From Kiritimatiellia bacterium (GTDB taxonomy: Bacteria; Verrucomicrobiota; Kiritimatiellia; RFP12; UBA1067): a DNA stretch of 64,000 nucleotides. Location of the stretch: contig JAQIBS010000018.1 in assembly GCA_027858965.1 (NCBI GenBank), forward strand, positions 18,550 through 82,549, read 5' to 3'. This document shows positions 1 to 36,901 of this stretch, in pieces; the stretch's first letter is position 1; every line of letters begins with the position of its first letter. The notes below the pieces were generated by a model. The model was not told the origin of the DNA and made no database searches. It worked only from the letters and a program-made list of their open reading frames with translations. The position numbers and the translations under genes were made by a program.

Positions 1-1250
1 CTAATGGGGGGCGTATAGGATTAAGCACCGGGAACCTCACACTGAATGGTCCTATTCGTCCACGTGAAGGCGTGACCCCAGCTCTGTTGGTATTTAATCC
101 TAGTAGCGGTACTATAACGATCAACAATACAGTTGATTCTGGTACGCGCAATACACTCTTTCACAGTGGAGGAACAGTTCTTCTTAACACTAACGGGCAT
201 AATTGGGGTGAGGCGCAGATTCAATACAGCAGCAAAGTGATGCTTGGCATTGATGATGCGATGGTTGTTTCCAAACGGGTGATCTTCGGCAATTCATCTG
301 GTGGCAATGGTACGATCAATATTAATGGTTTCAATCAGACCATTGGAGGGGTGTATATGTATGGGACAGCGGCATCCCTGCCGAACAACTTAATCAGGAA
401 TACAGATGCTACCAAGACCGGCACCTTTATAATAAAACATCTGACGGCTGTTGATCAGACCTTCAGTGGACGGATCATTGAAGCCGTTAATTTTGTCAAG
501 GATGGTGTTGCCGATTCTATTCTCACTTTGACTGGCACTAATACATTCACCGGTACTACCGAAGTGGATGGCGGCACGTTGATTCTGGGGAATGAGTGGG
601 CATTACAGAACAGCACCTTCAATGATACGACTTCCGAAGGTACACTGAGTTTCGGTAGCGGTTTTACAGAGTTTACCTTCGGTGGTCTGGCTGGTTCATC
701 TGATCTGGGATTAACCAATGCATCAGGTGTTGCCATTAATCTGATTGTCGGAAACAACAGCAGCGATACTATGTACAACGGTGTTCTCGCGGCTGGTGGC
801 AGCTTGACCAAGATCGGCACTGGCACACTGACATTGTCGGGTGAGAATACCTTCAGCGGCACAACAACAGTTACCAATGGCACTCTGGCTCTGGGTTGCG
901 ATAATGCATTGAGTGCTGGATCGCAGGTTGTTCTTAGTGGCGGTACGCTTGATGCGGGAGCTTTCGCGAACTCACTGGGTGTTCTCAGTGTGACAGGTGA
1001 TTCATCAATTGACCTGAGTGATGGTGCCGGCAGCCTTGCTTTTGCTGATAGCAGCAGTCAGACATGGAGCGGTGCTTTAAACATCGAGGGAAGCTGGCTG
1101 CCCTATACGTTGCGTGTCGGCACAAGTTCATCCGGTTTGACTAAGACACAGCTCAACAGCATTACGGTAGACAGTGAGAGTGTCTGGGTGCAGATTGATA
1201 ATGAGGGTTATCTCTGGAAAATGACCGGAACTCTCATTATCGTCAGGTAA
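1..1250 (+). CDS. 3'-portion of a large secreted surface protein with autotransporter-associated beta-strand (PATR-like) repeats. The reading frame is open back to base 3, so the gene starts upstream of the window. C-terminus is ...GTLIIVR.
   Basis: No stop between 3 and 72 in this frame. Repeated 'GTGTLTLSGENTFSGTTTVTNGTLALG'-type motifs. Ends with the heptapeptide shared by other proteins here. Confidence 0.6.
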   Translation, partial: NGGRIGLSTGNLTLNGPIRPREGVTPALLVFNPSSGTITINNTVDSGTRNTLFHSGGTVLLNTNGHNWGEAQIQYSSKVMLGIDDAMVVSKRVIFGNSSGGNGTININGFNQTIGGVYMYGTAASLPNNLIRNTDATKTGTFIIKHLTAVDQTFSGRIIEAVNFVKDGVADSILTLTGTNTFTGTTEVDGGTLILGNEWALQNSTFNDTTSEGTLSFGSGFTEFTFGGLAGSSDLGLTNASGVAINLIVGNNSSDTMYNGVLAAGGSLTKIGTGTLTLSGENTFSGTTTVTNGTLALGCDNALSAGSQVVLSGGTLDAGAFANSLGVLSVTGDSSIDLSDGAGSLAFADSSSQTWSGALNIEGSWLPYTLRVGTSSSGLTKTQLNSITVDSESVWVQIDNEGYLWKMTGTLIIVR

Positions 1251-4015: not shown

Positions 4016-4235
4016 ATCATACTCCTTATTACTAGTATCCCATAGCCACAACCGCAAAGGTCTCATAAATAGCCTGGCATAACCTAAATCACAAAACATA
4101 TTTAAATTACATTATGAAATACAATAATATGGTATTAGGGGATGGATAGTCAATATCTGATTTATATTAAGATACACAAGCAATTTCGTTCCGTTGAGGA
4201 TTCCCTGGCAAGTCGAATTAATGCAAAGGAAAGTA

Positions 4236-9430: not shown

Positions 9431-10851
9431 CAACTCGTTGGTGAAGGTGACGGCGAGCTGAGTGGAGTGATCAGCGCAGGCATGCTCATTGCTAAGAGCG
9501 GTAACGGAACCTGGGCACTTTCCGGCGCGAATACCTATGTCGGTGCTACCAGCGTGTCAGTCGGCACTTTGCTGATTAACGGTTCGACTACTTTCGAAAG
9601 TACGGTTGCCGTCGGGGCAGCGGGAACTCTCGGTGGTACAGGTACTGTTCACGGTGTTGTCAGCGTGACAGCCGATGGAACGCTTGCACCTGGAGCCGGT
9701 GGTGTCGGCACACTGACGCTGGATAACGGCAGTGCCACTAACCTGACTCTCAATGGCAACACAATTAAGTGTGATCTTTGATGAAACAGGTTCAGCTTCT
9801 CCTGATATCAATATTACCGAGGTGGTTGAACCTTTCTCAGTATTGGTTAACTCTGATACTAACAATTATACAATTGGCGGAGCGGCTATTGCCGGGTCAA
9901 CTGGTCTGACAAAATCCGGTGACAGTGTGTTGACCCTGACAGGTCATAATACGTATGGTGGCTTGACCACTGTTAATGCGGGCACACTGGCACTGACTGG
10001 CGGTTCGCTCAGCAACTCCAGTGTTAATGTTGCAGTGGGTGCGAGCTTTACGGAAGATTCGCGGATGGGGAAATACAATTCTTAACAGCACTGCCAGTAT
10101 CGGTACTTCCTCGATTCAGCGGGATGATAAAGGGACAACCCTGATCAACTCAACCAATAATGTCTGGGGCGGCAGCAATGTGCTGGAGGGAACCCTTAAA
10201 CTCGGTGCTGATAATGTTCTGCCTGTAACAACTACGCTGTTAATAGGTAAGACAGGAAACAAGGCGGATGCGGTATTTGATCTTAATGGTAAGAGTCAGA
10301 GAGTTGCCAGTATATCCGATATACACAACACATCAGTGGGTGGGGGAACTCAAAAAATTCTGAGTTCGACTCCTGCCACACTGATTGTCAGCAATGATAC
10401 AGCTATTACATTCGGTCTGACCGGAAGCTCCATTGAAGGTGAGGTGACCCTTGTTAAGATGGGAGCCGAATCCTTGACTCTGACCTCTACAAACGCGACT
10501 TCGGGCAGCTTTATTGTGAGCAATGGTACGCTGGTTGTCAGCGCGCTAGGCAGTTTTGGCGAGAATAGCACGAACGTTACCGTGGTGGCAGGCACTCTGA
10601 TACTGCAGAGTTCAGTTTCTGTCTCAGACAGCGCTACGCTTACGATTGCTGACGGTGGTGCTAAGGTTAGCTTGGCTGCCGGTGTGAACGAGATTGTTGA
10701 TTATCTGATACTGGGCGACACACCTAAAAGAGCCACCACCTACGGGGTAACCGGCAGTGGTGCTTCTGTGACAGATGATGCTCATTTTGACGGCAGTGGT
10801 ATTCTGACAGTTCTGCGTGATAAATCGGGGACTGTTATTGTTATCAGATAA
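9431..10851 (+). pseudogene. Promoterless, 5'-truncated copy of the downstream PATR gene (11104..14469). Carries frameshifts and two internal deletions. Retains the C-terminus ...GTVIVIR.
   Basis: Three consecutive ORF fragments in different frames (9467-9781, 9753-10085, 10021-10851) each align to successive segments of 11104..14469. DNA identity is about 78% at the 5' segment, rising to about 88% at the 3' end. Deletion junctions coincide with 'tcttt' microhomology. No signal peptide region. Confidence 0.7.
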
Positions 10852-11045: not shown

Positions 11046-11103
11046 ATTAGATTTTTTGTATACAAATTGAGTGTGCGAAAAAATGAAAACTGAGGATGGT
11101 ATT

Positions 11104-14100
11104 ATGAAATTAAAGCATATGATAGTTGCGGTAATGTTGTTTGTAATGACACTTGTTGTTTGTGCGGATACATTCACATGGGATGGTGGCGGCAGTGATG
11201 ACAACTGGCTGACAAATGTCAACTGGGATCCGGATGGAATTCCTGACAATGATGGCAGTGCTGTTTTAAATTTTTCCGGTAATACACGTAACGGGCCGAT
11301 TAATGATTTTGCTGCGAATACCGCATTTGCTGGGATCAATTTGTTCAATGATGGTTCGGCTGGCAAGACAGCGGCCTTCACTCTTTCGGGGAACACTCTC
11401 ACTCTGGGAGGCAACATCTCAACAACGGGATCGTCCTCTACTATTGCTGATGAGATCAATTTGAATATGGTTCTAAGTACAAACCGTACGATTACCGCTA
11501 ACAGTTTGCATGACCTAACGGTCAACGGTATTATCAGTGAATCCGGTGGATCACAGGGATTGAAAAAAGAAGGCGGCGGGAAGTTGTTTCTTAAAGGAGT
11601 AAATACCTATTCAGGAAAAACTGAGATCAACAGCGGTACCACATATTTCTACTCGCTTAAGAATATCGGTGAGGGGGGCAGTGCGCTGGGGGCACCGACC
11701 ACGGTTGCCGACGGCACGATTGATTTAAAAGCCACACTTGAATACAAAGGTGGGGAATCTACCTCTGATCGGAGTATCAATCTGACAGGGGGGCATAGTT
11801 TGCGGAATAATGGCAGCGGTACGCTCACTTTTACGAAAGGGGTTACAGGTGTGAATCGAGGTTTTTCTGTTCGGGGTAGCAGAAATATTACAATTAACGG
11901 ACTCGTTGATCTAGGTAGTGGTGGTATTGGCCGTACAGATCCTGGTACGTTGACGCTGGCTTGTCCTACAAACTCGTTCTCCGGCAGTATCTCCATATCT
12001 GCTGGGACTATCAGTGTTGAAACTATCTCCGATAGCGGCGTGATTTCGGCTCTAGGACAGGGAACAAGTATTAATATGGGACAAAACGGCTGGAATACAA
12101 TCGGAAAACTTCTGTTCAACGGTACCGCTGGCGGTTCATGTAATCGTGCGATATCCGTTGAGGGAACGGAGGGAAGCATCACCTCTGGTGGCATCATCGA
12201 AAACTCCGTGGCCGGTAAAATGCTGACTTTAAGCGGAAATGTCGCTGTCAAAACATCCGGGCGTACGCCCCGTCTGCAGCTTATTGGTGACGGTGACGGT
12301 GAAATGAGTGGAGTGATCAGCGCGGGTATGCTCATTACTAAAAGTGGTGCCGGAACCTGGACGCTTTCTGGTGCGAATACCTATGTCGGCACTACCAGGG
12401 TATCAACCGGAACTTTGCTGATCAACGGTTCAACGGCTTCCGGCAGCGCAATCGTTGTTGATGCAGGGGGAACCCTTGGTGGTACTGGTACTGTGCATGG
12501 TGTTATCAATGCTGTGTCAGGTGGAACTCTCACACCTGGAGTCGACGGTATCGGTACGCTTACGCTCGATAATGGCAGCGCTGCTGACCTTACACTTAAC
12601 AGCAATACGATTGAGTGTGATCTTTCAAATGTTGTCGGATCTTCCGATTTGATCGCTATCTCTGGAACACTGGTTGTAAATGGAGCCAATACAATAGAGA
12701 TTGATTTTCCTGATGGGCCAGCGCCTTACGGCACTTATACAGTAATGACCTATGATGCGAAGAGCGGGTCAGGCACCTTGGCTGTCGACCAGACCTACGA
12801 CAATGTCCTGGTAACTGTCGGAGCTACAAATGTGACCTTAACGATTGTTGATACCAGCACAGTAACCTGGCAGGGCGATGGCATTGCCAATGCTTGGGAT
12901 AAGAGCACAGCCAACTGGTCATCGGGTACTTATGTTGATAATGACACTGTGCTCTTTGATGATACCGGTTCAGCTTCGCCCGATATCAATATTGCCGAGG
13001 TGGTTGAACCTTTCTCTGTATCAGTTGACTCAGATACAAACAATTACACAATCGGCGGTGCGGCTATTGCCGGTTCAGCAGGCCTGATAAAGTCCGGTGA
13101 TAGTGTGCTTACTCTGACCGGTCATAACACCTACGGTGGCCTGACCACTGTCAATGCCGGCACACTGGCCCTGAATGGAGGCTCGCTCAGCAATTCCAGT
13201 GTTAATGTTGCGCCCGGTGCAACCTTTACCGAAGATGCTGATGGTGTTATCGCCGGTGCCGGTATTGGCTTTACAGCCCGGGGTTCGTCAATACTGGCGG
13301 GGTCGAATACGTATGATGGTGTAACTACAGTGGGTGTCATTGGTACTCCAAACATCATTTTGACAGTTAGAAACAATCAGGCTTTAGGTTCCACCCTGAA
13401 TGGAGTGACCCTTTACGGAGGGGACAACTCTACGGAAAGTAGGGTTAGAATTGATGTTGACGGCGTTGTGATAAAGGATGAGACGCTGACTTTTGCAGGG
13501 TCCGGAAAACGTGCTGGACTGCAGTATTATCGTAATAGCGGTGCTGGTACCTGGGATGGCAATCTTGTTTTGGCCGGTGCCCTTTGTTATTTGAATTCTG
13601 AGTTTTATGGAGGCACTTTAGTTATTGGCGGCACGTCCGATGATACGATTACGGGCTCCGGTGGCAGTATTTCATTGCGGGGATCGGGAACCATTGTTCT
13701 TAACAGCACTATCAATATTGGAAGTGATGGCTTACAAAGAGATGACGCTGGCACATGTGTAATTAATTCCACCAGTAATACTCTAGGTTATCTCAATGTC
13801 TTGCAGGGAACATTCAAGCTTGGTGTTGAGAATGCTCTGCCCTCCACAACAAGACTGACTATCGGTAAATCCGGAAATATCGCGCATGGCAAGTTCGATC
13901 TCAACGGCAAGAGTCAGACAATTGGAAACCTGGCAGAGTTGCATAACACATCAGTAGGCGGGGGAACACAGAAGATTCTCAGTTCAACTCCGGCTACACT
14001 GATTGTCAGCAACACTACGGCGAATACATTCGGTCTGACAGGAAGCTCCATTGAAGGTGAGGTTACCCTCGTTAAGATGGGAACAGAATCCCTGACTTTG

Positions 14101-14469
14101 ACAAGCACCAACACTACAGCCGGCAGTTTTATTGTGAGCAACGGTACGCTGGTTGTCAGCTCCACCGGCAGCTTTGGCGAGAATAGCACGAATGTTACCG
14201 TGGCGGCTGGAACTCTGACATTGCAGAGTTCAGTTTCTATATCAGACAGCGCTACACTTACTATCGCTGATGGCGGTGCCAAGGTCAGTCTGGATGCGGG
14301 TGTGAACGAGAGTGTTGATTACCTGATATTGGGGGATGCTCCTAAAAGCGCCACCACCTACGGCGCTACCGGTAGTGGTGCCGCGGTGATAGACGATACG
14401 CACTTTGCAGGCAGTGGAATACTGACCGTCCTGCGTGATACATCGGGAACAATGATTCTTGTCAGATAA
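11104..14469 (+). CDS. Large secreted PATR-repeat surface protein (about 1120 aa). C-terminus is ...GTMILVR.
   Basis: The ORF begins with GTG at 11071. The preferred start is ATG at 11104 (MKLKHMIVAVMLFVMTLVVCA signal peptide) after 'gagga'. Many 'LTLSGNTL..GG' / 'GTLTLSGANTYVGTT.VS.GTLLING' repeats. Confidence 0.65.
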   Translation: MKLKHMIVAVMLFVMTLVVCADTFTWDGGGSDDNWLTNVNWDPDGIPDNDGSAVLNFSGNTRNGPINDFAANTAFAGINLFNDGSAGKTAAFTLSGNTLTLGGNISTTGSSSTIADEINLNMVLSTNRTITANSLHDLTVNGIISESGGSQGLKKEGGGKLFLKGVNTYSGKTEINSGTTYFYSLKNIGEGGSALGAPTTVADGTIDLKATLEYKGGESTSDRSINLTGGHSLRNNGSGTLTFTKGVTGVNRGFSVRGSRNITINGLVDLGSGGIGRTDPGTLTLACPTNSFSGSISISAGTISVETISDSGVISALGQGTSINMGQNGWNTIGKLLFNGTAGGSCNRAISVEGTEGSITSGGIIENSVAGKMLTLSGNVAVKTSGRTPRLQLIGDGDGEMSGVISAGMLITKSGAGTWTLSGANTYVGTTRVSTGTLLINGSTASGSAIVVDAGGTLGGTGTVHGVINAVSGGTLTPGVDGIGTLTLDNGSAADLTLNSNTIECDLSNVVGSSDLIAISGTLVVNGANTIEIDFPDGPAPYGTYTVMTYDAKSGSGTLAVDQTYDNVLVTVGATNVTLTIVDTSTVTWQGDGIANAWDKSTANWSSGTYVDNDTVLFDDTGSASPDINIAEVVEPFSVSVDSDTNNYTIGGAAIAGSAGLIKSGDSVLTLTGHNTYGGLTTVNAGTLALNGGSLSNSSVNVAPGATFTEDADGVIAGAGIGFTARGSSILAGSNTYDGVTTVGVIGTPNIILTVRNNQALGSTLNGVTLYGGDNSTESRVRIDVDGVVIKDETLTFAGSGKRAGLQYYRNSGAGTWDGNLVLAGALCYLNSEFYGGTLVIGGTSDDTITGSGGSISLRGSGTIVLNSTINIGSDGLQRDDAGTCVINSTSNTLGYLNVLQGTFKLGVENALPSTTRLTIGKSGNIAHGKFDLNGKSQTIGNLAELHNTSVGGGTQKILSSTPATLIVSNTTANTFGLTGSSIEGEVTLVKMGTESLTLTSTNTTAGSFIVSNGTLVVSSTGSFGENSTNVTVAAGTLTLQSSVSISDSATLTIADGGAKVSLDAGVNESVDYLILGDAPKSATTYGATGSGAAVIDDTHFAGSGILTVLRDTSGTMILVR

Positions 14470-22940: not shown

Positions 22941-23003
22941 TAAATGCACATGATTTTATGTTTTAATAGGCAAAGGGGTATGCCGCAGCAATCAAGGGGG
23001 AGT

Positions 23004-25693: not shown

Positions 25694-26911
25694 TTAGGAC
25701 TTTACTCTGTAGGTTTTTCGGGCGTTACTCATTGTTTCATCAAAGGTTTTACGGACAAGTACGCTCAGGTGATTGCTGTTCGTAAATCCGCTGCGCTCGG
25801 CGATTTTCGCGAATGACAACTCTGTTTTAGTGACAAGATTGTAGATTGTTTTAGCTCTGACTCTGTGAATTTCTTTTACTGCAGATCTGCCAAGCTCCTG
25901 TGCAAAGCGTTTTTCCAGCCAGCGCTCTGATACCCCGACCTGTATAGCAACATCCGAGACTCGGATATTCAGTCCTGAGTTGATTCGTATGAATTCCAGA
26001 GCTTTGATGACAAGGCGGTCATTTACCTGTAATCGCTGTGAAGAGGCTCGGTGTATGATATTTTCCGGTTCATAGCGGACATGGGGTTCCTGCAGCTTTC
26101 CGCTATGCATTAGCTTATCAAGCATCTCTGCGGCCAAGTATCCGGCTTGCTCCATATTAACAGCAATGCTTGATAGCGGCGGCAGACTGGTTTCACAGAT
26201 AAGCACATCATTATTTACACCGAGTACCGCAATTTCATAAGGGACCGCTATATCAGCTGAAAGACATGCATTAAGCACCTGACGTCCACGAGAGTCGTTA
26301 GCCGCAAAAATCGCAATCGGTTTCGGAAGCTTCTTTAACCAGCAACACATCGCTCTTTTTTCTGATGACCAGTTTAAGATATCATCTATATCCGGCATTT
26401 CATAAACATCGCACGTAAAATTCCGCTCTGCCAGTTGTTTGATAAATGCCTGCTGACGCCAGCGTGACCAGTTGAACCCGTTCGGGTCGCCGACGTAACC
26501 GAAGTTTGTAAATCCCTGTGAGATCAGGTGGTTGACGGCCATAAGAGAAACAGCTTCTGAGTTACATTGAACACGCGGACATTTTGCCAGGGGGTGACTT
26601 TCGTCAAGATAACGGTTGAATGGATCAATCAGAATGGTGGGTAGTTTCGCCTGAATAATATCTTCAGCAGATTCAGAATTGGGAATGCGTGCAATAATGC
26701 CGTTACCTTTCCACTCTTTAATATCAGGCATGCGTTGGTCATTGGCTCCACCGGCAATCATATCCAGCGCCCATGGACCATAAACACGCACATATTCAAG
26801 AATGCCCCGCATCATCCCACGTGATATCCCGTGCGATGATTCCAGCAGAATAGCAACTTGCGGGATCTTTTTTCGCGTCTTTTTCTTTTTGACATTGTTT
26901 CTCTTTGCCAT
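25694..26911 (-). CDS. XylR-type transcriptional regulator: periplasmic-binding-protein-like sugar-sensor domain fused to a C-terminal AraC-family HTH.
   Basis: C-terminal 'ALEFIRINSGLNIRVSDVAIQVGVSERWLEKRF...FAKIAERSGFTNSNHLSVLVRKTF' is an AraC HTH. LacI/PBP-like N-terminal domain. Start taken at the internal Met MAKRNNVKKKK (26911). Confidence 0.65.
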   Translation of the reverse strand: MAKRNNVKKKKTRKKIPQVAILLESSHGISRGMMRGILEYVRVYGPWALDMIAGGANDQRMPDIKEWKGNGIIARIPNSESAEDIIQAKLPTILIDPFNRYLDESHPLAKCPRVQCNSEAVSLMAVNHLISQGFTNFGYVGDPNGFNWSRWRQQAFIKQLAERNFTCDVYEMPDIDDILNWSSEKRAMCCWLKKLPKPIAIFAANDSRGRQVLNACLSADIAVPYEIAVLGVNNDVLICETSLPPLSSIAVNMEQAGYLAAEMLDKLMHSGKLQEPHVRYEPENIIHRASSQRLQVNDRLVIKALEFIRINSGLNIRVSDVAIQVGVSERWLEKRFAQELGRSAVKEIHRVRAKTIYNLVTKTELSFAKIAERSGFTNSNHLSVLVRKTFDETMSNARKTYRVKS

Positions 26912-26928: not shown

Positions 26929-26974
26929 TGTAGTTCGGAAAATCTAACATATAATTCGTAAAATAGAGAATGTG
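26929..26974. promoter_or_regulatory. Candidate operator: direct repeat TTCGGAAAAT-N11-TTCG(T/G)AAAAT. Same 46-bp element recurs at 29498-29543.
   Basis: 'tgtagttcggaaaatctaacatataattcgtaaaatagagaatgtg' versus 'tgtagttcggaaaatctaacatatagttcggaaaatagagaatgcg'. Confidence 0.5.
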
Positions 26975-27034
26975 AATTATTCGGTTATATGAAATGATTA
27001 AAAGGTTGAAGGTTGAAGGGGCATCGTTGAATTT

Positions 27035-27109
27035 GTTCGGTATCGCTATCGGTATCGGCATCGGTATCGAATTTAATTCGATGGTTGCTGTGTCCGATAG
27101 CGATACCGA
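27035..27109. promoter_or_regulatory. Perfect 17-bp inverted repeat (ttcggtatcgctatcgg ... ccgatagcgataccgaa) with internal cggtat hexamer repeats. It lies between the divergent regulator and the beta-helix gene.
   Basis: Seen directly in the sequence. The two arms are separated by 41 bp. Confidence 0.5.
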
Positions 27110-27168
27110 ATGTAATTAAGATCCATGTTATAGGGACAGATGCAATATTAGATAGGAATGAAATTGAT

Positions 27169-29289
27169 ATGAGAACATTGATGAGCATGGTATTTTCGTA
27201 TGTCTGTTTAGTGGCTGTAGTGGGCGCAAATACGACAGAACTATATGTGTCCCCAACCGGTTTAGACAATAATCCCGGATCGCGGGACAAGCCTTTTGCC
27301 ACATTATCAAGGGCGCGTGATGCTGTAAGGGCTATGAAGCGTGGCAAGGGGCTTCCGCAGGATGGCGTGACTGTATGGCTGCGTGGTGGCGAATATTTCT
27401 TCAGCGGACCGCTGGAACTGAACTCTGCTGATTCCGGTGAGCCGGATAAACCCGTGATATATTCTGCATACAAGGATGAAGTACCGGTTCTTTCGGGGGG
27501 CCGTTGTATCAAGGGTTTGCATCCGGTGGGTGGGGGAATATGGGAGGTCTCTGTTCCTGAGGCGAAAGGCGGCGCCTGGATTTTCCGTACTCTGTATGTT
27601 AATGGCAGTCGCTATACTCTGGCACGGTCACCAAATAATAGTTTTTATGAAATGGAGGGGGCTCTTCCCGATGAAAACTCTCCTAAGGATGGTGCGGAAG
27701 CAGGTAAATCAAAGTCAGGTTTTAAAGTTCTTCCCGCTGTGTTAGGGCAATGGCCTGATAACAGTGGAATCAATGTTAAGTTGTGGGGACGCTGGTGGAC
27801 ATCACTGTTGATGGTGCGTTCGGTTGATCCATCTGGCGGAGCTGTGAAACTTTGCGGGGCGGATAAACAATATCTGCCATATCGACATCGCAAGAAGACT
27901 CCGTTTATCATTGAAAACCATCCCGGAGCACTTGATGTCTCCGGTGAGTGGCAGCTGGATCGTAATACAGGTGTGTTGAAGATTATTCCGCGTGCGGGTG
28001 ATGATCTTAGCTCTATGGAAGTGATTGCACCTGTGGCGGAAAGGTTGCTGGTGTTGAAGGGGGATGCTGCGACAGGATCTTATGTGAATCACGTGGTTTT
28101 TCGAGGAATCAGCTTTCGCTATACAAACTGGACCCTGACCCCGGATTTTACAGGAATGCAGGCCGATGCGGATGTGAGTGCTGTAATTGAGTGTTATGGG
28201 AGTCGGAACTGTCTGTTTGAAGGGTGTGAAGTGAGCCAGACAGATACATCCGCAATCTGGCTGCGGCGTGGCACCCGTGAGTGTACGGTACGGCAATGTC
28301 ATTTTTATGATCTGGGCGCAGGCGGCGTGAAACTCGGTGAAACACAGGCATATGCGCAAAGTGATCCGCTCTGTACCGGTGGTAATACTGTTGAAAACTG
28401 CTATATACATAATGCGGGTCATGTGCATGGCTCCGGCGGTACCGGCATCTGGATTGGTGCAAGTTCTGATAATACCGTCACACATAATGAGATCTGTGAT
28501 CTTTGGTATACCGGTATAGCCGTGGGATGGAGATGGAGTGCGGATCTTAATGGTACGCGTAATAACCGTATAACATACAATTATATCCATCATATTATGC
28601 AGCGTCTCTCTGATGGAGGGGGAATTTATACTCTCGGTTTTCAACCTCAGACGGTATTGGCTAATAATATCATTCACGACAGCGGCCGGGATGGAGGTCC
28701 ATCGCATTGTCGAGGCATCTATATGGATGAAGGTTCTGTCGGATTTCTGGTTGAAAACAACCTTGTATATGATACGCAGGATGCTGCCCTGCGGATGCAG
28801 ATCGGGACGGGTTGCAACGTTTTCATCAATAATATCCTGGCATATGCCCGTGAATATGCGGTTGATATGGATGTAGCAAGAACTTGTGTTTTTATTAATA
28901 ACATTGTTTATCTGGATCAAGGTCGTCTGTTTAAATTTCAGAAGTGGCCGCATTACGAAAAATACATCTCAAAGAATCTCTATTGGCGGACTGATGGTCA
29001 GCCATTTACGGTCATGGGTCAGTCCTGGGATGAGTGGCGCAAGCAGACGCAGGCACCTATGTCCTATTTTAAAGGCCAGACCATGGATCAAGGCTCATTG
29101 GTAACTGATCCGCAGTTTGTTGATGCGGAAAAACGCGATTTTCGTTTGAAAGCCGGCTCGAAAGCATTTGCTATCGGGTTTAAGCCGCTGGATCTGGCTG
29201 CTCCTGGTTTGATTGGTGATGAAAATTGGACAGCTCTGCCTTCACGAGAGCGGACTTTAATTTCGTTCGAAGAGGGAGTAGCAAGGTAA
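27169..29289 (+). CDS. Secreted right-handed parallel beta-helix repeat protein (putative polysaccharide lyase/glycosidase).
   Basis: 'YVSPTGLDNNPGSRDKPFATLSRARDAV' N-terminus. Repeated 'NN.I.D....GI...' beta-helix rungs ('NCYIHNAGHVHGSGGTGIWIG', 'ENNLVYDT'). Confidence 0.55.
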   Translation: MRTLMSMVFSYVCLVAVVGANTTELYVSPTGLDNNPGSRDKPFATLSRARDAVRAMKRGKGLPQDGVTVWLRGGEYFFSGPLELNSADSGEPDKPVIYSAYKDEVPVLSGGRCIKGLHPVGGGIWEVSVPEAKGGAWIFRTLYVNGSRYTLARSPNNSFYEMEGALPDENSPKDGAEAGKSKSGFKVLPAVLGQWPDNSGINVKLWGRWWTSLLMVRSVDPSGGAVKLCGADKQYLPYRHRKKTPFIIENHPGALDVSGEWQLDRNTGVLKIIPRAGDDLSSMEVIAPVAERLLVLKGDAATGSYVNHVVFRGISFRYTNWTLTPDFTGMQADADVSAVIECYGSRNCLFEGCEVSQTDTSAIWLRRGTRECTVRQCHFYDLGAGGVKLGETQAYAQSDPLCTGGNTVENCYIHNAGHVHGSGGTGIWIGASSDNTVTHNEICDLWYTGIAVGWRWSADLNGTRNNRITYNYIHHIMQRLSDGGGIYTLGFQPQTVLANNIIHDSGRDGGPSHCRGIYMDEGSVGFLVENNLVYDTQDAALRMQIGTGCNVFINNILAYAREYAVDMDVARTCVFINNIVYLDQGRLFKFQKWPHYEKYISKNLYWRTDGQPFTVMGQSWDEWRKQTQAPMSYFKGQTMDQGSLVTDPQFVDAEKRDFRLKAGSKAFAIGFKPLDLAAPGLIGDENWTALPSRERTLISFEEGVAR

Positions 29290-29497
29290 GTCATGCCTTT
29301 GCAAACCGACGCAATTGACTAATGCGGGCTCTGCCCGCAACCCAATAAGAGAACTACGAAAGGCGCGAAAAACACGAAAATTGCTTTTGACGATAGGTCA
29401 TACGCAAAAAAAAGAATTCATTTTTTCGTGCTTTTCGTGTTTTTCGTAGTTAAAAAAACGTGCATAAATAACAAGAAGTTGATTTTATAGCAACTAA

Positions 29498-29543
29498 TGT
29501 AGTTCGGAAAATCTAACATATAGTTCGGAAAATAGAGAATGCG
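29498..29543. promoter_or_regulatory. Second copy of the TTCGGAAAAT direct-repeat element, about 75 bp upstream of gene 29618.
   Basis: See 26929-26974. Confidence 0.5.
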
Positions 29544-29617: not shown

Positions 29618-30946
29618 ATGAAATTAAAAAACAAATTACTGGCTAATCTAGTGAAGGTCTCTTTCATTATGCTGGCTTTTGCAATGCAGGCAGCGCCTGT
29701 GCCTGTCACTGGCGTGTCAACCACACCTGGATTTGGCGGGGGTATCCCGCTCGGTAGCGGGCGGGTGTTGAATTATGTTGAGATTTCGAATGTTTGGTAC
29801 AATGTCAGAGGTGCCACATGTACTGAGTGTAATGCAGGATCAGCCGAAGGTGCGGTAAACGAAACTCAGCCAACCAGTCGTCTGGTTGCCCTGAGCGGGC
29901 TGAAAATTACGCAGTCTGTGCTCAATATCAAAAGCAGCGGCGCGAAGTTTGATCTGGGCATGACTGTTTCAAATAATACTACTCGGATTCTGTTCAGTGA
30001 AGTTGCGGCGAATACACAGTCAACAGGCGATTATATTACAATTTATCCGACCACTAACGGAGTTGTCGTCGGCTCCTGGAAGCTGGATATTGTGGCTGCA
30101 GATTATGCCGATACCGTTCTTGCATGGCAAGGTGTCACAGGCAGCTATCTATTCCGATCTTTTATAACATCATTCACTCTGAGTGATTTCTCGGGCGATA
30201 CAGGAACTCTGCTTTTCGATGGTTTTAAGATATCCGGTAATAATGATGTTGACCCCAACTTTGCCGCTATATTGCAAGAACCTGCGTCTGCTCCAATATC
30301 GAGTACGCCCATCCCGGCGACCGGAATTTTTTCGCCGGGCTTTGTTATTTCTCCTGAGACGAACCTTCAGACACTTGTTGGAATCGTCACCAGTAATGGA
30401 ACTTCCCGGCAGGTCAGCAGCCTTTCATGTGTAAGGGTGACAAACGGTGGTGCCTACCTGACTGATACTAATAATCCGCCTACAAAGCTTGAAGTTCTTT
30501 CAGAGTTGTCTTTCACAGAGGTCATTGCAAATGCATCCGGCATGGAATTTGAAATCGGGAGGACTGTTAATAGTGATGACGGAGTTCGTTTTTTTCTGAG
30601 TGAGTGTGATGTCAGGGACTCTGGGACAGATGATGTTGTTATTGTTTATCCGCTTTATGAGGGAGAGAGAATTGATAATTGGTGCCTCGAGTTCCAGTCA
30701 TCGGATTATGGTGAACCGACTCCGGATTGGAGTGCACAGCTGTTGGGAGGGGGCCATGAGCCGACCTTCTATGGTTCGCTGACAAGCTTTGCTCTGAGTG
30801 ATTTCACAAATGGACCACCCATTGCTCTGACTGGTGTCAACGGTTTTGAGGTCAAATGTCCCACTATCGACAATCTGACAGCCGATATCAGCGTTTTCGG
30901 CATGTATGAGATGCCACCTGAGGGCACGATTATTTTGGTACAATAA
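29618..30946 (+). CDS. Secreted hypothetical protein, paralog A of a tandem pair. Two internally repeated domains of about 200 aa. C-terminus is ...GTIILVQ.
   Basis: Signal peptide 'MLAFAMQAAPVPV'. 'CTECN'. Internal repeat pattern '...FDLG.TV.N...R.LFSE...GD.I.IYP...G..VG.W.LDI.A.DY...TSF.LSDF...'. GGAG RBS. Confidence 0.5.
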   Translation: MKLKNKLLANLVKVSFIMLAFAMQAAPVPVTGVSTTPGFGGGIPLGSGRVLNYVEISNVWYNVRGATCTECNAGSAEGAVNETQPTSRLVALSGLKITQSVLNIKSSGAKFDLGMTVSNNTTRILFSEVAANTQSTGDYITIYPTTNGVVVGSWKLDIVAADYADTVLAWQGVTGSYLFRSFITSFTLSDFSGDTGTLLFDGFKISGNNDVDPNFAAILQEPASAPISSTPIPATGIFSPGFVISPETNLQTLVGIVTSNGTSRQVSSLSCVRVTNGGAYLTDTNNPPTKLEVLSELSFTEVIANASGMEFEIGRTVNSDDGVRFFLSECDVRDSGTDDVVIVYPLYEGERIDNWCLEFQSSDYGEPTPDWSAQLLGGGHEPTFYGSLTSFALSDFTNGPPIALTGVNGFEVKCPTIDNLTADISVFGMYEMPPEGTIILVQ

Positions 30947-30963
30947 TTAAAATCAATCTACAT

Positions 30964-31034
30964 CCACGGTGTAACGGCGGATATACTGTATGGTTCGGTA
31001 TGTTCGCCGCTATGCGGCGGATGTATAAATAATC
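30964..31034. promoter_or_regulatory. Upstream element 'ccacggtgtaacggcggatatac...gtatgttcgccgc'. A related element sits at 14649-14704 upstream of the fucosidase gene.
   Basis: Sequence comparison. 14649-14704 forms a 16-bp inverted repeat caccgtgtaacgccgg / ccgccgttacacggtg. Confidence 0.4.
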
Positions 31035-31067
31035 ATGCTATGGATAAGTCCTGTCAAAGGAGAAATT

Positions 31068-32369
31068 ATGAAAATTAAATCCAGAAATATTATGATGGCA
31101 TCTTTTGCCATGATGGCATTTGCAATACAAGCGGCACCTATACCGGTCGATGCAATCTACTGTGATCCTGGTTTTGTGACTGGAGTTGCAGCCACAAATC
31201 GACAGAACCTCGTATATATTGCGGTTAGCAATGATGGGTATCAGGTGACAGGTGCCGTTTGTACTGAATGTACCTCTACCCGACGTGGAGGAACAACAAA
31301 CGACCTTCCTGCTTCTTCTTCTGCTGCTTTGAGCGGAGTTATATTAACTCATGTGGTTATCGATAGTTCCAACGGGGCCAAGTTCGATCTGGGTGTGACC
31401 ATTACAAATGATAATACGGGAATCGTTCTTGGTGAGATTGGCGCTTCTAATCAGACATCCGGAGACCCGATCAATGTCTACCCTCTGATAAATGGGATTC
31501 GTGTAGGAAACTGGGTGCGCCGGATCACAGCGGTAGATTACGGAATGTTTAATGCTAAGCCTTTCAGGGTGGATCGAAGTGATGGTATTCTGAATCAGAC
31601 ATTAATACCATTTTTGACTACCTTCCGACACAGTGATTTCACTAATGATACCGGTGCTCTATCATTCGATGGCATAGAAATCAATGATACCAGCAATTAT
31701 GATCCGAATATTGTCGCTGTATTTGGGGAAGCCTTAACACTCGTGACCAACAAACTGCCTGTAACCGCAATGACATTCTCTCCTGGATTTGATGAAAATC
31801 CGGAGCTGGATGGTCAGGTTCTGAAATCTATTACTACTGATGAGGGTACTTTTAGTAATATTGAGGGGTTGAGATGTGTAAGCGCCGGTGGTTCAAAATT
31901 CGGAGCTGTAAATGAAGGTGTGCCGGACCATGCCACCAATGCACTCAGTGAACTCCGATTCACCCAGGGCTCTGCCAATGTAGGCACTGCCGATTGGATT
32001 CTTGATGCGGTAGTTAATGGATCCGATTCTAATCTTCGCTTCTTTTTTGGAGAGATATCTGTATATACTTCCGTAAATCCGGATTCTGTTACAATAACTC
32101 CTTTTGTTGATGGGGTGCTTTTCAGCGATAAAACGCTTGTCATTGAATCGGGCGATTATGGAACTCCCAGCCCTGTTTGGGATAACACATACGTTAGTTT
32201 GTTTGTGGGCACTATGGTCTCATTTTCTCTTAATGATTTCCTTGACGGTGTGTTTGATGAGCCGCTTACCAACGTTACCGGTTTCCGGGTATATAGTTCA
32301 ACTGCTGATCCAAATATCTTCGGGACATATAAAATACCGTTTCCAGGAACAATCATAGTTGTTTATTAA
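31068..32369 (+). CDS. Secreted hypothetical protein, paralog B of the tandem pair. C-terminus is ...GTIIVVY.
   Basis: Start at ATG 31068 after AAGGAG. Signal peptide 'MMAFAIQAAPIPV'. 'CTECT'. Same two-domain architecture as 29618..30946. Confidence 0.5.
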   Translation: MKIKSRNIMMASFAMMAFAIQAAPIPVDAIYCDPGFVTGVAATNRQNLVYIAVSNDGYQVTGAVCTECTSTRRGGTTNDLPASSSAALSGVILTHVVIDSSNGAKFDLGVTITNDNTGIVLGEIGASNQTSGDPINVYPLINGIRVGNWVRRITAVDYGMFNAKPFRVDRSDGILNQTLIPFLTTFRHSDFTNDTGALSFDGIEINDTSNYDPNIVAVFGEALTLVTNKLPVTAMTFSPGFDENPELDGQVLKSITTDEGTFSNIEGLRCVSAGGSKFGAVNEGVPDHATNALSELRFTQGSANVGTADWILDAVVNGSDSNLRFFFGEISVYTSVNPDSVTITPFVDGVLFSDKTLVIESGDYGTPSPVWDNTYVSLFVGTMVSFSLNDFLDGVFDEPLTNVTGFRVYSSTADPNIFGTYKIPFPGTIIVVY

Positions 32370-32465: not shown

Positions 32466-33338
32466 ATGAAAATTGAAATGTTATTACCCGCGGTTTTACT
32501 TCCGCTTATGCTCCTCTGTTCATGCAGGACAGTTTGTAATGATTCTGCTCAGGATGGTTTGCCCAAAGGTAAAAAGTGGAAGCTGGTATGGAGTGATGAG
32601 TTTAACGGAACTGAGCTTGATAAAACCAAGTGGGGGTTCCGCCGTCATCTGATTCAGCAGAAGCATGATACCTTCTGCGGAGAAGAGGGCGTTCAGCTGG
32701 ATGGCAAGGGCTTTATCCATTTGAATCTGATTGAAAAAGATGGACAGTTCTACTCACCGCACATGCAGACCGGTGAGAATTTTCTGGATCGTCCGGGTGA
32801 TAAACCCTACAGCCGCTTCCTCTGGCCTGTTGCGGAGATGAAACCGGCTAAATTTACGCATAGCTACGGTTACTATGAAATTCGCTGCAAGCTGCAGAAA
32901 AAACCCGGCTGGTGGTCTGCATTCTGGTTGCAGTCGCCTATTATTGGGGCTTCACTTGATGCTGAGAAAACCGGTGTTGAAATTGATATTATGGAGAATT
33001 TCACCCGCGATGGAAAAGTATCTTCTAACATCCACTGGGGTGGATATGCCAAGAATCACGAACATAAGGGCTCTGGACATATACAGCTGGATTCACAGGA
33101 TGGTTTTCGTACCTATGGTCTTGACTGGTCAAAGGATGGTTACACCTTTTATATTGACGGAGAGGTCAGCTGGAAAGCCGATGGACCGGTCTCGGATGTT
33201 GAACAGTTTATTCTGATTTCAACGGAATGCATGGGGTATCGCCAGTCAAAGGATAAACCCTCGCCGAAGTTAAAGAAGGAAAATCTGCCGGATGCTTTTG
33301 TTGTCGATTACGTCCGCGTTTACGATGAAGTGGAATAG
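32466..33338 (+). CDS. Glycoside hydrolase family 16 (beta-glucanase/laminarinase-like) lipoprotein.
   Basis: 'WKLVWSDEFNG' and the catalytic 'EIDIME' motif. Lipobox 'LLCSC'. Confidence 0.8.
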   Translation: MKIEMLLPAVLLPLMLLCSCRTVCNDSAQDGLPKGKKWKLVWSDEFNGTELDKTKWGFRRHLIQQKHDTFCGEEGVQLDGKGFIHLNLIEKDGQFYSPHMQTGENFLDRPGDKPYSRFLWPVAEMKPAKFTHSYGYYEIRCKLQKKPGWWSAFWLQSPIIGASLDAEKTGVEIDIMENFTRDGKVSSNIHWGGYAKNHEHKGSGHIQLDSQDGFRTYGLDWSKDGYTFYIDGEVSWKADGPVSDVEQFILISTECMGYRQSKDKPSPKLKKENLPDAFVVDYVRVYDEVE

Positions 33339-33482: not shown

Positions 33483-36122
33483 ATGAAGTTAATTGCGTTA
33501 ATAAATATGATTGCGGTTTTATCCGTATCTGCTTCGGTTCAATGGAGTTTTGAAAAAAAAGAAATTGAGCTTGGGGGTACGTTCGGTGTCGAATCCCGTG
33601 GCGAGCAACCGGTTTTTACAAATGAGGTTTTCAGTAAGCAGATCTTTGATGGTAGCACTTTTACCTCGCTGCAGGAAAATAATCAGCGTTCGCTTTACTT
33701 TAAGCCTACAGTAGTAACAGGGAGCGTTGCTCCTGCCGGTGGCGAACTGACAGTTGACGGCGCGAAGAAAGAGCTGCACCTTAAAACTCTGACTGTTGAA
33801 GCTTTTGTCCGGGTCGAAAAACAGCAGAAAATGTATGCTCTGATTGCCAGTAAGCGCAGGAGCAATGGTTGCACCTGGAGTATGTCGGTCACACCTGATG
33901 GTGTTTTCAGTGTCAGGCTGGATACGCAGCCAGGACCCTCCGGTCCTGGATTCAATTTCACTGTGTCTAGCGGCGCCCTTGTGAATGATGGTCTCTGGCA
34001 TCATGTCGCCATGGTCTTTAATCACGAGAACCAGCAATGCGCACTTTATGTTGATTACAAAGAGGCCAAGAGCACAACATTACAGGGGCCGCTTGTATAC
34101 GATAATGGAGTTTTTACCATTGGTCGCGGTCTTAACGGCTGGATAGATGAAGTCCGTATCAGCGATAAGCCGCTTCATCCCGAGCAGTTTCTGCGTAAAA
34201 CAAAGTTCTTTTCCGACTCTATATCCAAAAAGAAAAGCAGTTACCCTGATGTGATGGTCGACCTCACCCGCACCCGTGTGCAGAGCCCGGCAGTCCTGGA
34301 CTGGAAGAAGATCGGTACGCTCAAACCGAAAACAGTTGATGAGATACCCGGTGATTTCTGGTCGCTCGGCTGTGAGACTCTTGATCGTGATCTTGCTGAT
34401 TGGGATGCTTACAAAGGTTACCTTAAGTACCTCGGTATCAAACGTATTCGCCTGCAAGGCGGTTGGAACAAGACTGAAAAGGAAAAAGGCGTTTATGATT
34501 TTGAGTGGCTTGATCATATTGTGGATAGCGCCCATGATCTTGGAATCAAGGTCTGTCTGGAAACCTCTTATGGCAATAGACTCTATAATCCCCATGCCGG
34601 GCTCGGTCCCGGTGGATATCTTCCCGCCGGTGAGGAACTTGAGGCTTGGGATAAGTGGGTAACCGCCATGGTCAAACACTATCAGCCTAAGGGTGTTGAT
34701 GAGTGGATGATGTACAACGAGCCCAATCTGAAAAGCAAGTCCAACACTGTTGAAAGAATTGTGGCAAACAATGGACGCACAGCCGCCATTATCAAAAGCA
34801 TTGATCCTGATGCTAAGATCGGCGGTCTGGTCTGTGCTGGACTCAACACATCTCTCATAGAAAAGTGGGCTAAAGGGCTGAAAGAAAAAGATCAGCTTAA
34901 ATATTTTACATGGGTGATCTATCACGGTTATGCCGCTAACCCTGATGCGCTCAATACAGGTATGCGTAAAGCCAAGGCAATGTTGCATGAATACTCTCCA
35001 ACCTTGAAACTCTGGCAGGGAGAGGCCGGGTGCGCCTCTGAACCAGTGCAGTATGCTCTCTCAGGTGTTGAATGGACTGAGCTTTCGCACGCCAAGTGGA
35101 ATGCACGGCGCATGCTCTGTGATTTCGGCGTGGGAATTGAATCAACTGTGTTTACAATTTCCGATCTCGCCTACCATAAGAATTTCATCTCCCGTTATGG
35201 TCTGATCAAAACTAATCCTGATAACTCGATTATTAAAGTTAAAACCGTTTTCTATGTAGTCAATAACATCGTTTCAGTTTTTAATGATTCCGTTGCAATT
35301 AATAATGACTGTAAATTTGAGATAGAAGCTCAGGATAAGATCACGCGTTTTGCGTTTAAGGATAAAAAGAGCGGTTATGACTTGATAGCTTTCTGGGATG
35401 GATCCGATCTTCCTGAAAATACATGTGAGCTTGGTTCAGCTGTGGTTAAGGTAGAAAATCTGAAAATGGATACGCCGGTCTGGGTTGATATGTTGACCAG
35501 TAGGATCTATGAGATTCCTGCAGCGAACATCTCTAAGCAGGGCAGTGTTACCATTATCAAGGATGTTCCTTATCTCGACTCGCCTATTGCTCTGACAGAT
35601 CTCTCTGTGCTCACCTATGTTGAGGCGCGCAAGTCCAAGGGTGCCGCTGTACGCAAAAGAAAGAAGAAGAGTGCTGTTAAGGTGGCTGAGGTGCCGATGC
35701 GTAACTTTAAACTTTTCGGTTCGCAGAAACCGGCTCCGGCTGTTATTATTGTTGAAGGGTCTGGCGTAAATGCCAGCTGGGCTGATGCTGCAGCTGAGTG
35801 GCTGCGGGAAAATGAGATTCATGCCTTTGTATTGAGCGGTGAAAAAAACTCTCTTAAGGATGCCGTAAAGTATCTCAAATCAATGAGTATGGCATGGTCC
35901 GTTGATCCTAAACAGATTGGAGTTCTGGGCGCTTCCTCTCTTACAAAGAGCTATAAGGAAGCTGGTGCCAATTTTGTTGTAAATATTGATCAGCCTGCAA
36001 ATGCAGATAAAAAAAATACATTATTTGCAGTTGATGCAAATAATGATAAGTTTGATCTTAAAGCATTATGGCTTAAGGATCTTTTGAAATGGATTGAACC
36101 ACGTAAAACAAAGGTGTTTTAA
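33483..36122 (+). CDS. Multidomain secreted glycoside hydrolase: N-terminal LamG/concanavalin-like domain plus a clan GH-A TIM barrel.
   Basis: 'LWHHVAMVF...LYVDY' is LamG-like. 'MMYNEPNLKS' looks like a GH-A acid/base motif. Start after AGGGGGAA. Confidence 0.4.
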   Translation: MKLIALINMIAVLSVSASVQWSFEKKEIELGGTFGVESRGEQPVFTNEVFSKQIFDGSTFTSLQENNQRSLYFKPTVVTGSVAPAGGELTVDGAKKELHLKTLTVEAFVRVEKQQKMYALIASKRRSNGCTWSMSVTPDGVFSVRLDTQPGPSGPGFNFTVSSGALVNDGLWHHVAMVFNHENQQCALYVDYKEAKSTTLQGPLVYDNGVFTIGRGLNGWIDEVRISDKPLHPEQFLRKTKFFSDSISKKKSSYPDVMVDLTRTRVQSPAVLDWKKIGTLKPKTVDEIPGDFWSLGCETLDRDLADWDAYKGYLKYLGIKRIRLQGGWNKTEKEKGVYDFEWLDHIVDSAHDLGIKVCLETSYGNRLYNPHAGLGPGGYLPAGEELEAWDKWVTAMVKHYQPKGVDEWMMYNEPNLKSKSNTVERIVANNGRTAAIIKSIDPDAKIGGLVCAGLNTSLIEKWAKGLKEKDQLKYFTWVIYHGYAANPDALNTGMRKAKAMLHEYSPTLKLWQGEAGCASEPVQYALSGVEWTELSHAKWNARRMLCDFGVGIESTVFTISDLAYHKNFISRYGLIKTNPDNSIIKVKTVFYVVNNIVSVFNDSVAINNDCKFEIEAQDKITRFAFKDKKSGYDLIAFWDGSDLPENTCELGSAVVKVENLKMDTPVWVDMLTSRIYEIPAANISKQGSVTIIKDVPYLDSPIALTDLSVLTYVEARKSKGAAVRKRKKKSAVKVAEVPMRNFKLFGSQKPAPAVIIVEGSGVNASWADAAAEWLRENEIHAFVLSGEKNSLKDAVKYLKSMSMAWSVDPKQIGVLGASSLTKSYKEAGANFVVNIDQPANADKKNTLFAVDANNDKFDLKALWLKDLLKWIEPRKTKVF

Positions 36123-36901
36123 TGAATAATTTTAAAGGTAAGATTGTCTTGGTAACCGGTTCCAACCAGAATACAGGATTGGAAATTGCGGCGAGGTTTA
36201 TGGATGAGGGTGCACAGGTTATTATAACCGGTTCATCATCTGAAAAGACGGAAAAGGGGATATCCAAGCTGCGTGAACGCGGTTATTCAGATTTTACCGG
36301 GTGTCCGGCTGATATAAGATCACTCTCTGATGTCAAAGCTCTCTTTTCAATGATTAAAGAGAAATTCGGACGCCTAGATGTGTTGGTAAATAATGCCTGT
36401 AATCAGGGGATTGGAGCTTCTTTTATTGATATGGACCCTGATTTCTTTTTAAATGTTATCAAGACAAATCTGCTGGGAACCTTTCAGGTATCCCAGCAGG
36501 CTGTATGCATGATGCTGAAGCAGGAATCAAAAGGGGTTATTGTCAATCTGGGTTCCAATACTTCTACCCGTTCAATTAGAAATCGTACAGCCTATGTTGC
36601 GTCCAAGGGCGGACTTGATTCCCTGACCCGCTCCATGGCACTGGATCTGGCTCCAAAGGGTATCCGTGTTAATATGGTTGCACCTGGTTATATCTACACA
36701 GATCGCTGGGATGTACTTGATGAGGATATCAAGAAAAGACGGCGTACCAATATGCCTTGCGGAGTTGAATCAACCGGTAGAGATGTCGCCAATGCAGTGC
36801 TCTTTTTTGCATCGGATCAGGCCAAAACAATCTGCGGTGAGCGCATGGTGGTTGATTCCGGATGCACTATCCAGCTGGCGCCGGTTGATGTTGATATTTA
36901 A
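36122..36901 (+). CDS. Short-chain dehydrogenase/reductase (SDR).
   Basis: 'VLVTGSNQNTGLEIA', 'NNAC', 'YVASKGGLDSL', 'PGYIYTD'. Confidence 0.8.
   Translation: MNNFKGKIVLVTGSNQNTGLEIAARFMDEGAQVIITGSSSEKTEKGISKLRERGYSDFTGCPADIRSLSDVKALFSMIKEKFGRLDVLVNNACNQGIGASFIDMDPDFFLNVIKTNLLGTFQVSQQAVCMMLKQESKGVIVNLGSNTSTRSIRNRTAYVASKGGLDSLTRSMALDLAPKGIRVNMVAPGYIYTDRWDVLDEDIKKRRRTNMPCGVESTGRDVANAVLFFASDQAKTICGERMVVDSGCTIQLAPVDVDI

Follow-up and report, generated by a model that had tools for sequence, protein, structure and literature searches.

Within a 64,000-nt stretch of DNA from a Kiritimatiellia bacterium (GenBank assembly GCA_027858965.1, contig JAQIBS010000018.1, positions 18,550 to 82,549 of the forward strand; hereafter the window), two adjacent genes, termed A and B here, encode exported proteins that are each built from two tandem copies of the same type of domain. 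The domain family is undescribed, and its presence in a conserved, regulated glycan operon is real and out of the ordinary. We describe the two genes, their relatives and their genomic setting, and we tentatively interpret their products as glycan-binding proteins. The pair is organized as follows, with all coordinates given in the numbering of the window.

29618..30946, + strand: gene A, 442 amino acids
29618-29692, + strand: gene A signal peptide, amino acids 1-25
29693-30283, + strand: gene A jelly-roll domain 1, amino acids 26-222
Between domains 1 and 2, + strand: gene A inter-domain linker EPASAP
30299-30910, + strand: gene A jelly-roll domain 2, amino acids 228-431
30911-30943, + strand: gene A tail MPPEGTIILVQ, amino acids 432-442
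31068..32369, + strand: gene B, 433 amino acids, paralog of A with the same architecture, signal peptide at amino acids 1-22 and tail PFPGTIIVVY

Both open reading frames (ORFs) reported in a first-pass annotation of this DNA exist, A exactly as described and B with the start at 31068 but with a length of 433 rather than 434 amino acids. The frame of gene B is already open at 31035; because a GGAG ribosome-binding site precedes the ATG at 31068, we favor this codon as the start. The proposed paralogy was borne out by 38% identity between A and B across their full length (E 4e-85). Comparison of the N-terminal with the C-terminal half of each protein likewise recovered two homologous domains of about 200 amino acids, with 29% identity in A (E 1e-16) and 23% in B (E 2e-5). 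The signal peptides, described earlier as nearly identical, both consist of a lysine-rich n-region, a hydrophobic core and the cleavage region A-x-A/APVPV, a pattern that is kept across the family. This region is of the signal-peptidase-I type and has no lipobox cysteine at position +1, which rules out that A and B are lipoproteins.

Conservation was assessed in an alignment of 28 family sequences, to which all family-wide figures for the tail, the cysteines and the polar residues refer. A CTEC motif, put forward earlier as a conserved cysteine pair, is present in both A and B, and its first cysteine is kept in at least 90% of the family, but the second is missing in some members. The polar residues D190, D212, E247, Q251 and R324 are invariant, as is C271 in domain 2, the domain-1 counterpart of which, C68, is kept in at least 90% of sequences. 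Y163 and W154 also count among the conserved residues.

Scans of Pfam and NCBIfam with A, B and 61 domain sequences left the globular domain unmatched and returned only the PEP-CTERM tails of relatives, and a profile search of PDB sequences with the domain gave no match, in agreement with the earlier failure to place the proteins in any known family. The two-domain form is rare. A word-indexed search of 5.8 billion clusters recovered 27 two-domain relatives with 38-67% identity, none of which carries a Pfam domain or an informative name, and an exhaustive profile search of 1.84 billion representatives returned 82 matches, about five of them full-length clusters. Among the GTDB species-representative genomes there were two loci only, in metagenome-assembled genomes (MAGs) named "Verrucomicrobia bacterium" and "Lentisphaeraceae". 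Carriers of the two-domain family include MAGs labeled Kiritimatiellae, Verrucomicrobia and Lentisphaeraceae; a look-up of the clusters supplied hardly any names. The earlier attribution to the Planctomycetes-Verrucomicrobia-Chlamydiae (PVC) group was correct: a 100% identical entry is locus PF904_01575 of a "Kiritimatiellae bacterium" MAG.

In an AlphaFold2 model of full-length A, two all-beta jelly-roll domains were predicted (predicted local distance difference test [pLDDT] 86.2, predicted template-modeling score [pTM] 0.74). Domain 2, modeled from a deeper alignment, was again an all-beta jelly-roll (pLDDT 94.4, pTM 0.90). In both models the last ~11 residues form a coil of lower confidence outside the sandwich. 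The Foldseek matches of highest probability for domain 2 were an F-type lectin (3lei/4gwi), a carbohydrate-binding module (CBM) of family 32 (2w1u), a CBM8 (7t7y) and the accessory domain of SpGH29. With the two-domain model the top matches were a CBM32-alginate lyase (5xnr, E 3.4e-5), a CBM22 tandem and a CBM51; this search was distorted by domain orientation, and the 5xnr alignment has a root-mean-square deviation of 20 Å and a TM score of 0.17. A structure search of the BFVD viral library gave no match. Because no close solved relative was found, the predicted fold is not a well-characterized fold unrelated to carbohydrates. The lectin-like beta-sandwich anticipated in the first-pass annotation thus stands as a fold class, but no lectin or CBM family was matched significantly.

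Most of the 82 profile matches are proteins of ~240-260 amino acids, with E-values down to 1e-40. In the 15 such relatives that were inspected, the domain occurs once, together with a signal peptide and, mostly, a complete PEP-CTERM signal; 36 of the 37 single-domain relatives in the domain alignment match PF07589, and one relative bears IPTL-CTERM rather than PEP-CTERM. In a joint alignment (h, hydrophobic), the family tail PPxGT-h-I-h-V-x falls on PEP-x-T-h-h-L..RRR of these proteins, and the inter-domain linker (G)EPAP likewise falls on PEP. At the PEP position A reads PPE, B reads PFP and the family consensus is PPxG; the columns correspond one to one, but the motif is degenerate. A and B thus resemble PEP-CTERM proteins (PF07589/TIGR02595) in their homologous globular domain, their N-terminal signal peptide and a tail aligned with the start of the sorting signal, whereas they differ in ending five or six residues past the threonine and in the tandem duplication of the domain.

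Neither A nor B matched PF07589 or TIGR02595, even at E <= 10. The hydrophobic helix of ~20 residues that should follow the motif is absent, five or six hydrophobic residues being followed by the stop codon, and there is no C-terminal basic cluster, the last residue being a single Q, Y, H, R, W, N, K or M. Because helix, basic cluster and hidden Markov model match all fail, A and B are not to be filed as members of the PEP-CTERM class. No exosortase domain was detected among the ORFs scanned in the window, and a literature search for Kiritimatiellae in connection with PEP-CTERM, exosortase or autotransporter returned nothing relevant. Read-through of the stop codon into a full PEP-CTERM signal was rejected, since the downstream frame has no hydrophobic or arginine segment and the position of the stop codon is the same in all full-length family members. 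The simplest history suggested by these alignments is that a single-domain PEP-CTERM protein, which would itself have been a surface protein, was duplicated in tandem and then lost its membrane helix and arginine cluster.

Conservation across the whole superfamily is limited to F..SDF, one glycine, one aspartate and the proline of PEP. Larger relatives fuse the domain to DUF4886, which we take to be an SGNH-type esterase-like domain, and to LamG_3, Ig-like, HYR and AbfB-like modules; such fusions are typical of accessory binding modules.

The C-terminal GTII.V tail noted earlier in A and B proved to be a family-wide feature: G436 is invariant, and T437 and I439 occur in at least 90% of the sequences, within a family whose members can be as little as 38% identical. 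Its terminal heptapeptide is also common to four proteins of the window with PATR repeats (PF12951), the bodies of which are unrelated to those of A and B.

72..1250, + strand: PATR-repeat protein, N terminus cut by the window edge, Pfam PATR 9e-14, ending WKMTGTLIIVR*
1307..4099, - strand: PATR-repeat protein of 930 amino acids, ending EIIGGTLILVH*
10021..10851, + strand: PATR-repeat protein, ending RDKSGTVIVIR*
11071..14469, + strand: PATR-repeat protein of 1132 amino acids, ending RDTSGTMILVR*

When the family consensus was slightly relaxed (serine allowed beside threonine at position 2), the resulting pattern occurred 12 times in the 46,578 residues of all ORFs of at least 60 amino acids, and six of these occurrences were exactly C-terminal, against ~0.09 expected among 334 ORF ends. 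Homologs of the PATR protein at 11071..14469 follow the same rule, with ~30 of 34 clusters ending in a short G-[TSLM]-hydrophobic run that closes mostly with R, Q or K; neither a membrane helix nor an arginine cluster was found in them. In these proteins the tail may be a lineage-specific C-terminal tag. The PATR proteins of Kiritimatiellae, which we take to be adhesin-like, share the heptapeptide and the genome neighborhood with A and B, but have a repeat body rather than a jelly-roll and no PP motif before the tail. None of the glycoside hydrolases (GHs) of the window has the tail, a distribution that suggests a tag carried by one class of exported proteins without enzymatic function. A role of the tail as an outer-membrane beta-signal was considered and rejected, as its hydrophobic residues do not alternate but form an unbroken stretch, and it follows no terminal aromatic rule.

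The genes surrounding A and B, which had been recognized correctly in the first-pass annotation as far as the regulator, the beta-helix protein, the GH16 enzyme and the LamG-GH enzyme are concerned, are the following.

25694..26910, - strand: XylR-type AraC-family regulator, Pfam Peripla_BP_3 7.8e-36 (periplasmic-binding-protein-like sensor) and HTH_18 5e-12
27169..29289, + strand: secreted right-handed beta-helix protein, putative glycanase/lyase, Pfam Beta_helix 1.4e-20 and NosD
32466..33338, + strand: GH16 endo-glycanase, Pfam Glyco_hydro_16 2.7e-17
33483..36122, + strand: LamG (Laminin_G_3) plus clan-A TIM-barrel glycosidase, with weak GH39/GH42/GH44 similarity
36122-36901, + strand: short-chain dehydrogenase/reductase (SDR), downstream catabolic gene
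37057-38355, + strand: major facilitator superfamily (MFS) transporter, downstream catabolic gene
38499-39668, + strand: enolase-superfamily sugar-acid dehydratase, downstream catabolic gene

The signal-peptide-like N terminus of the beta-helix protein begins at an internal methionine, and for the LamG-GH protein sequence matches in the PDB were marginal only. The order regulator (on the opposite strand), family gene or genes, GH16, LamG-GH, SDR, MFS and enolase-superfamily gene is kept in the window and in two homologous loci, L001 and L004, and a third, L002, has the same order minus GH16. Elsewhere the family gene lies ahead of GH39-like and LamG proteins, ahead of GH16, or amid two GH16 genes, a LamG protein, an alpha-galactosidase-type gene and a LamG-GH gene. 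Overall, a GH16 and/or LamG-GH39/42-like enzyme is encoded at most two genes from the family gene in eight of nine informative loci, the LamG-GH39/42-like gene being the most constant neighbor; the ninth locus, which is ended by a contig end, contains FGE-sulfatase-domain genes instead. Because this contig-limited locus is the only one that lacks a carbohydrate-active enzyme (CAZyme), the family homologs are not scattered away from CAZymes, a scatter that would have spoken against the first-pass proposal. In L009 (8001-13417, on a contig of 5.5 Mb), the distant single-domain PEP-CTERM relative P0034 comes ahead of an uncharacterized 584-aa protein, a LamG-PEP-CTERM protein and a GH39/42-like gene, the last of which adjoins an AraC regulator gene. 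This arrangement may represent an unfused version of the same functional module. Another such relative comes after a LacI regulator gene.

Four repeat elements lie in the intergenic regions around the two genes.

26929..26975, + strand: operator copy 1, two direct repeats AGTTCGGAAAATCTAAC / AATTCGTAAAAT with 21-bp spacing, between the regulator and beta-helix genes
29352..29451, + strand: long inverted repeat, 29-nt arms, 86% complementary, core CGAAAAACACGAAAA, -44.3 kcal/mol, z = -6.7
29497..29543, + strand: operator copy 2, ATGTAGTTCGGAAAATCTAAC ATATAGTTCGGAAAATAGAGAATG, ~75-120 bp upstream of gene A
30959..31025, + strand: intercistronic hairpin between A and B, inverted repeat, -42.5 kcal/mol, z = -5.6, no U-tract

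Operator copy 2 contains two 16-nt direct repeats (AGTTCGGAAAATCTAAC) at 21-bp spacing, and copy 1, the beta-helix gene's own copy, is nearly identical to it over 47 nt. In the window the core TTCGNNAAATC-N10-TTCG is present two times, where 0.01 occurrences would be expected. L001 (9903-9927), L002 (9850-9874) and L004 (9886-9910) each have it exactly once, just upstream of the family gene, while loci without the regulator are also without this element. Direct repeats with 21-bp spacing are the usual type of site for AraC-family activators. From its sequence and distribution, we read the element as a conserved operator, with gene A as the apparent first gene of the regulated unit; it provides a handle for tracing the regulon of the XylR-type regulator. 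The ORF listed for the regulator, which runs to 27061 (455 amino acids), overlaps operator copy 1 at 26929-26975 and is thus taken to be over-extended. Its orthologs have 401-403 amino acids, that in L001 being 85% identical, and translation probably starts at the ATG at ~26910.

Repeated elements had been proposed upstream of both A and B. Both sites do carry repeats, but these are not alike: the one upstream of A is a direct-repeat operator and the one upstream of B an inverted-repeat hairpin, which rules out a single repeated element. The A-B hairpin is kept in L001 with stem-preserving differences and could be a stabilizer, a processing site or a partial terminator; an Rfam scan of the window, this hairpin included, gave no match. 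A transcript boundary is probably marked by the long inverted repeat at 29352..29451, which separates the beta-helix gene from the promoter region of gene A. Within the beta-helix leader (27036-27110), a run of GGTATC-like hexamers (ggtatcgctatcggtatcggcatcggtatcg) lies opposite its inverted copy (ccgatagcgataccga) and could form a 5'-untranslated-region hairpin or be a simple-repeat element.

The A/B pair predates the species, because L001 holds orthologs of both A (62% identity) and B (64%). Copy number varies among the other loci, with two family genes in L004 and one each in L002 and L005. Compared with L001, A and B are 62-64% identical and the other operon genes 67-91%; compared with L004, the corresponding values are 39-56% and 65-93%. 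A and B are the fastest-evolving genes in the operon. Exposed binding proteins typically evolve fastest, and core enzymes usually do not.

Laminarin had been suggested as a ligand to be assayed on account of the adjacent GH16 gene. The closest solved relative of this GH16 enzyme is 6t2n (E 7.9e-15), from a study of endo-acting O-glycanases, with laminarinases and kappa-carrageenases close behind among its PDB relatives. The best PDB match of the enolase-superfamily enzyme is 3rr1, a putative D-galactonate dehydratase (E 5.8e-67), and one homologous locus contains an alpha-galactosidase-type gene. Because the GH16 enzyme is nearest to the O-glycanase type and is accompanied by a galactonate-dehydratase-like enzyme and, in that locus, an alpha-galactosidase-type gene, laminarin does not appear to be specifically indicated as the substrate, and a galactose-containing glycan seems at least as likely.

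Based on these observations, we tentatively favor the view that A and B are non-catalytic, envelope-associated glycan-binding proteins. In the mechanism we envisage, the divergently encoded XylR-type AraC regulator would control the operon through the direct-repeat operator, with A and B as promoter-proximal genes. Upon sensing of the cognate sugar, A and B would be made together with the GH16 enzyme, the LamG-GH39/42-like glycosidase and the beta-helix enzyme, and the same induction would provide the SDR, the MFS transporter and the galactonate-dehydratase-like enzyme. Exported through the Sec pathway, the two proteins, each with two tandem jelly-roll modules and without catalytic activity of their own, would be kept at the cell envelope or on a partner by the short hydrophobic tail (PPxGT-h-I-h-V-x), and there they would bind the target polysaccharide and keep it in place for the enzymes encoded alongside, the probable substrate being a galactose-containing glycan from algae or a host. 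We infer a surface location for both proteins.

Several observations weigh against this interpretation. In the Foldseek search of the PDB with the domain-2 model, no match was significant (best E 6.5e-3, all TM scores <0.5), and TNF/C1q-like jelly-rolls and those of phage tailspikes and fibers scored like the lectin and CBM matches. CBM profiles gave no sequence match for the domain. A tail of 11 residues with five hydrophobic residues is too short to span a membrane, and some relatives sit in loci without CAZymes. The galactose-binding-domain-like CBMs and lectins (CBM32, F-type lectin, CBM8, CBM22 and CBM51) resemble the A/B domain in general fold class, with Foldseek probabilities of 0.94-0.99, and in being fused to, or placed beside, glycan-active domains; they are unlike it in that E-values are 1.7e-2 or worse, TM scores are 0.29-0.49, the length is ~140 as opposed to ~200 amino acids and no profile matches. 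Because no lectin or CBM match is significant, the term lectin-like reflects fold class and genomic context. The first-pass proposal of a glycan-binding component of a polysaccharide utilization system therefore holds for the lack of a known family, for the beta-sandwich and for the CAZyme linkage, but not for similarity to a recognized lectin or CBM.

It is possible, though we consider it unlikely on balance, that the heptapeptide G-T-h-I-h-V-x is an undescribed tag for protein sorting or envelope anchoring in Kiritimatiellae and related bacteria, a minimal form that derives from the first residues of the PEP-CTERM signal, works without its helix or basic cluster and marks surface proteins that are not enzymes and are unrelated in fold. 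On this reading, A and B would serve a PVC-type polysaccharide utilization system as glycan receptors displayed at the surface. The link between the tail and PEP-CTERM raises the question of whether a seven-residue remnant of a sorting signal is able to direct or tether proteins in diderm bacteria.

The constancy of the LamG-GH39/42-like gene as a neighbor would also suit an improbable alternative in which A and B do not bind glycan but act as docking or scaffold partners of this enzyme, and perhaps of the GH16 enzyme, the tail serving to tether the enzymes at the envelope. The distant relative P0034 has a LamG-PEP-CTERM protein and a GH39/42-like gene in its neighborhood, the enzymes of the window lack the tail that A and B possess, and the tail itself, a conserved hydrophobic strand left unpacked in the models, would lend itself to strand addition onto a partner. 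However, locus L014 has the family gene with GH16, its contig ending one gene later, and L013 has no recognizable LamG-GH gene, although this locus is also cut by a contig end. A scaffold function is moreover compatible with glycan binding by A and B rather than exclusive of it.

We likewise give little weight to a role of A and B as structural components of the envelope or matrix, such as an adhesin or coat, of PEP-CTERM descent. Their co-regulation with glycan use would then serve, for example, the attachment to particles and would not involve specific recognition of the substrate of the operon. The PEP-CTERM/exosortase class is tied to exopolysaccharide and floc matrix, and the PF07589 matches of nearly all single-domain relatives, weak sub-threshold matches to floc_PepA, the tail held in common with PATR proteins (taken to be adhesin-like) and the relatives found outside CAZyme loci all fit such a role. 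Against it, the catabolic gene order and the operator are strictly kept in genomes that have diverged to 50-60% identity, and a general coat protein is not expected to come first in a substrate-induced catabolic operon.

Least probable is a new family of jelly-roll enzymes, polysaccharide lyases (PLs) or hydrolases, acting on the polymer before the GH16 and LamG-GH enzymes: A and B do come first in the operon, many jelly-rolls are catalytic (PL7, PL18 and GH16), the two-domain model had the CBM32-alginate lyase as its top match, and the polar residues listed above and C271 are invariant, C68 being nearly so. However, no GH or PL family resembles A and B in sequence or, to a significant degree, in structure, the alignment to 5xnr is as poor as given above, the residues conserved across the superfamily form no acid/base pair pattern, the relatives are either small proteins of the PEP-CTERM type or modules accessory to larger proteins, and A and B evolve faster than every enzyme of the operon.

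As glycan-binding proteins, A and B would play the role that SusE/F-type binding proteins have in Bacteroidota loci. With SusE and SusF, the proposed analogs, they share tandem beta-sandwich modules, a presumably non-catalytic nature, a location in a glycan locus that would be substrate-induced and faster divergence than the enzymes. They are unlike them in lacking a lipoprotein signal, in the absence of sequence or significant structural similarity and in belonging to another phylum. No SusC/SusD-like genes were found in the locus of the window or in the homologous loci, which have an MFS transporter instead. PVC bacteria, Kiritimatiellae among them, play a major part in degrading sulfated and complex glycans of marine or host origin. 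To our knowledge, they lack the SusC/SusD machinery of Bacteroidota, and polymer capture at their surface is poorly understood. A and B, which are conserved, fast-evolving and promoter-proximal and contain a new beta-sandwich domain, are concrete candidates for the binding component of PVC systems. New here are the PEP-CTERM relatives, the alignment of the tail, its presence on PATR proteins, the conserved operator and the fast evolution of A and B.

Other parts of the window are also rich in genes for glycan use. GH31, GH29 alpha-L-fucosidase, BNR/sialidase-like, CBM4_9, GH42-like and LamG-BNR proteins are encoded at 4375-6759, 14634-16127, 19046-20101, 20544-25592 and 54466-57288, and the gene for the LamG-BNR protein is followed by a DHDPS-family (sialate-lyase-like) gene. 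Judged from these predicted functions, the region is a dense glycan-use island. Finally, an ORF at 60302-61741 (+ strand) contains both domains of eukaryote-type hexokinase, PF00349 (E 2e-20) and PF03727 (E 7e-44); most bacteria have ROK or glucokinase-type enzymes rather than a hexokinase of this type.

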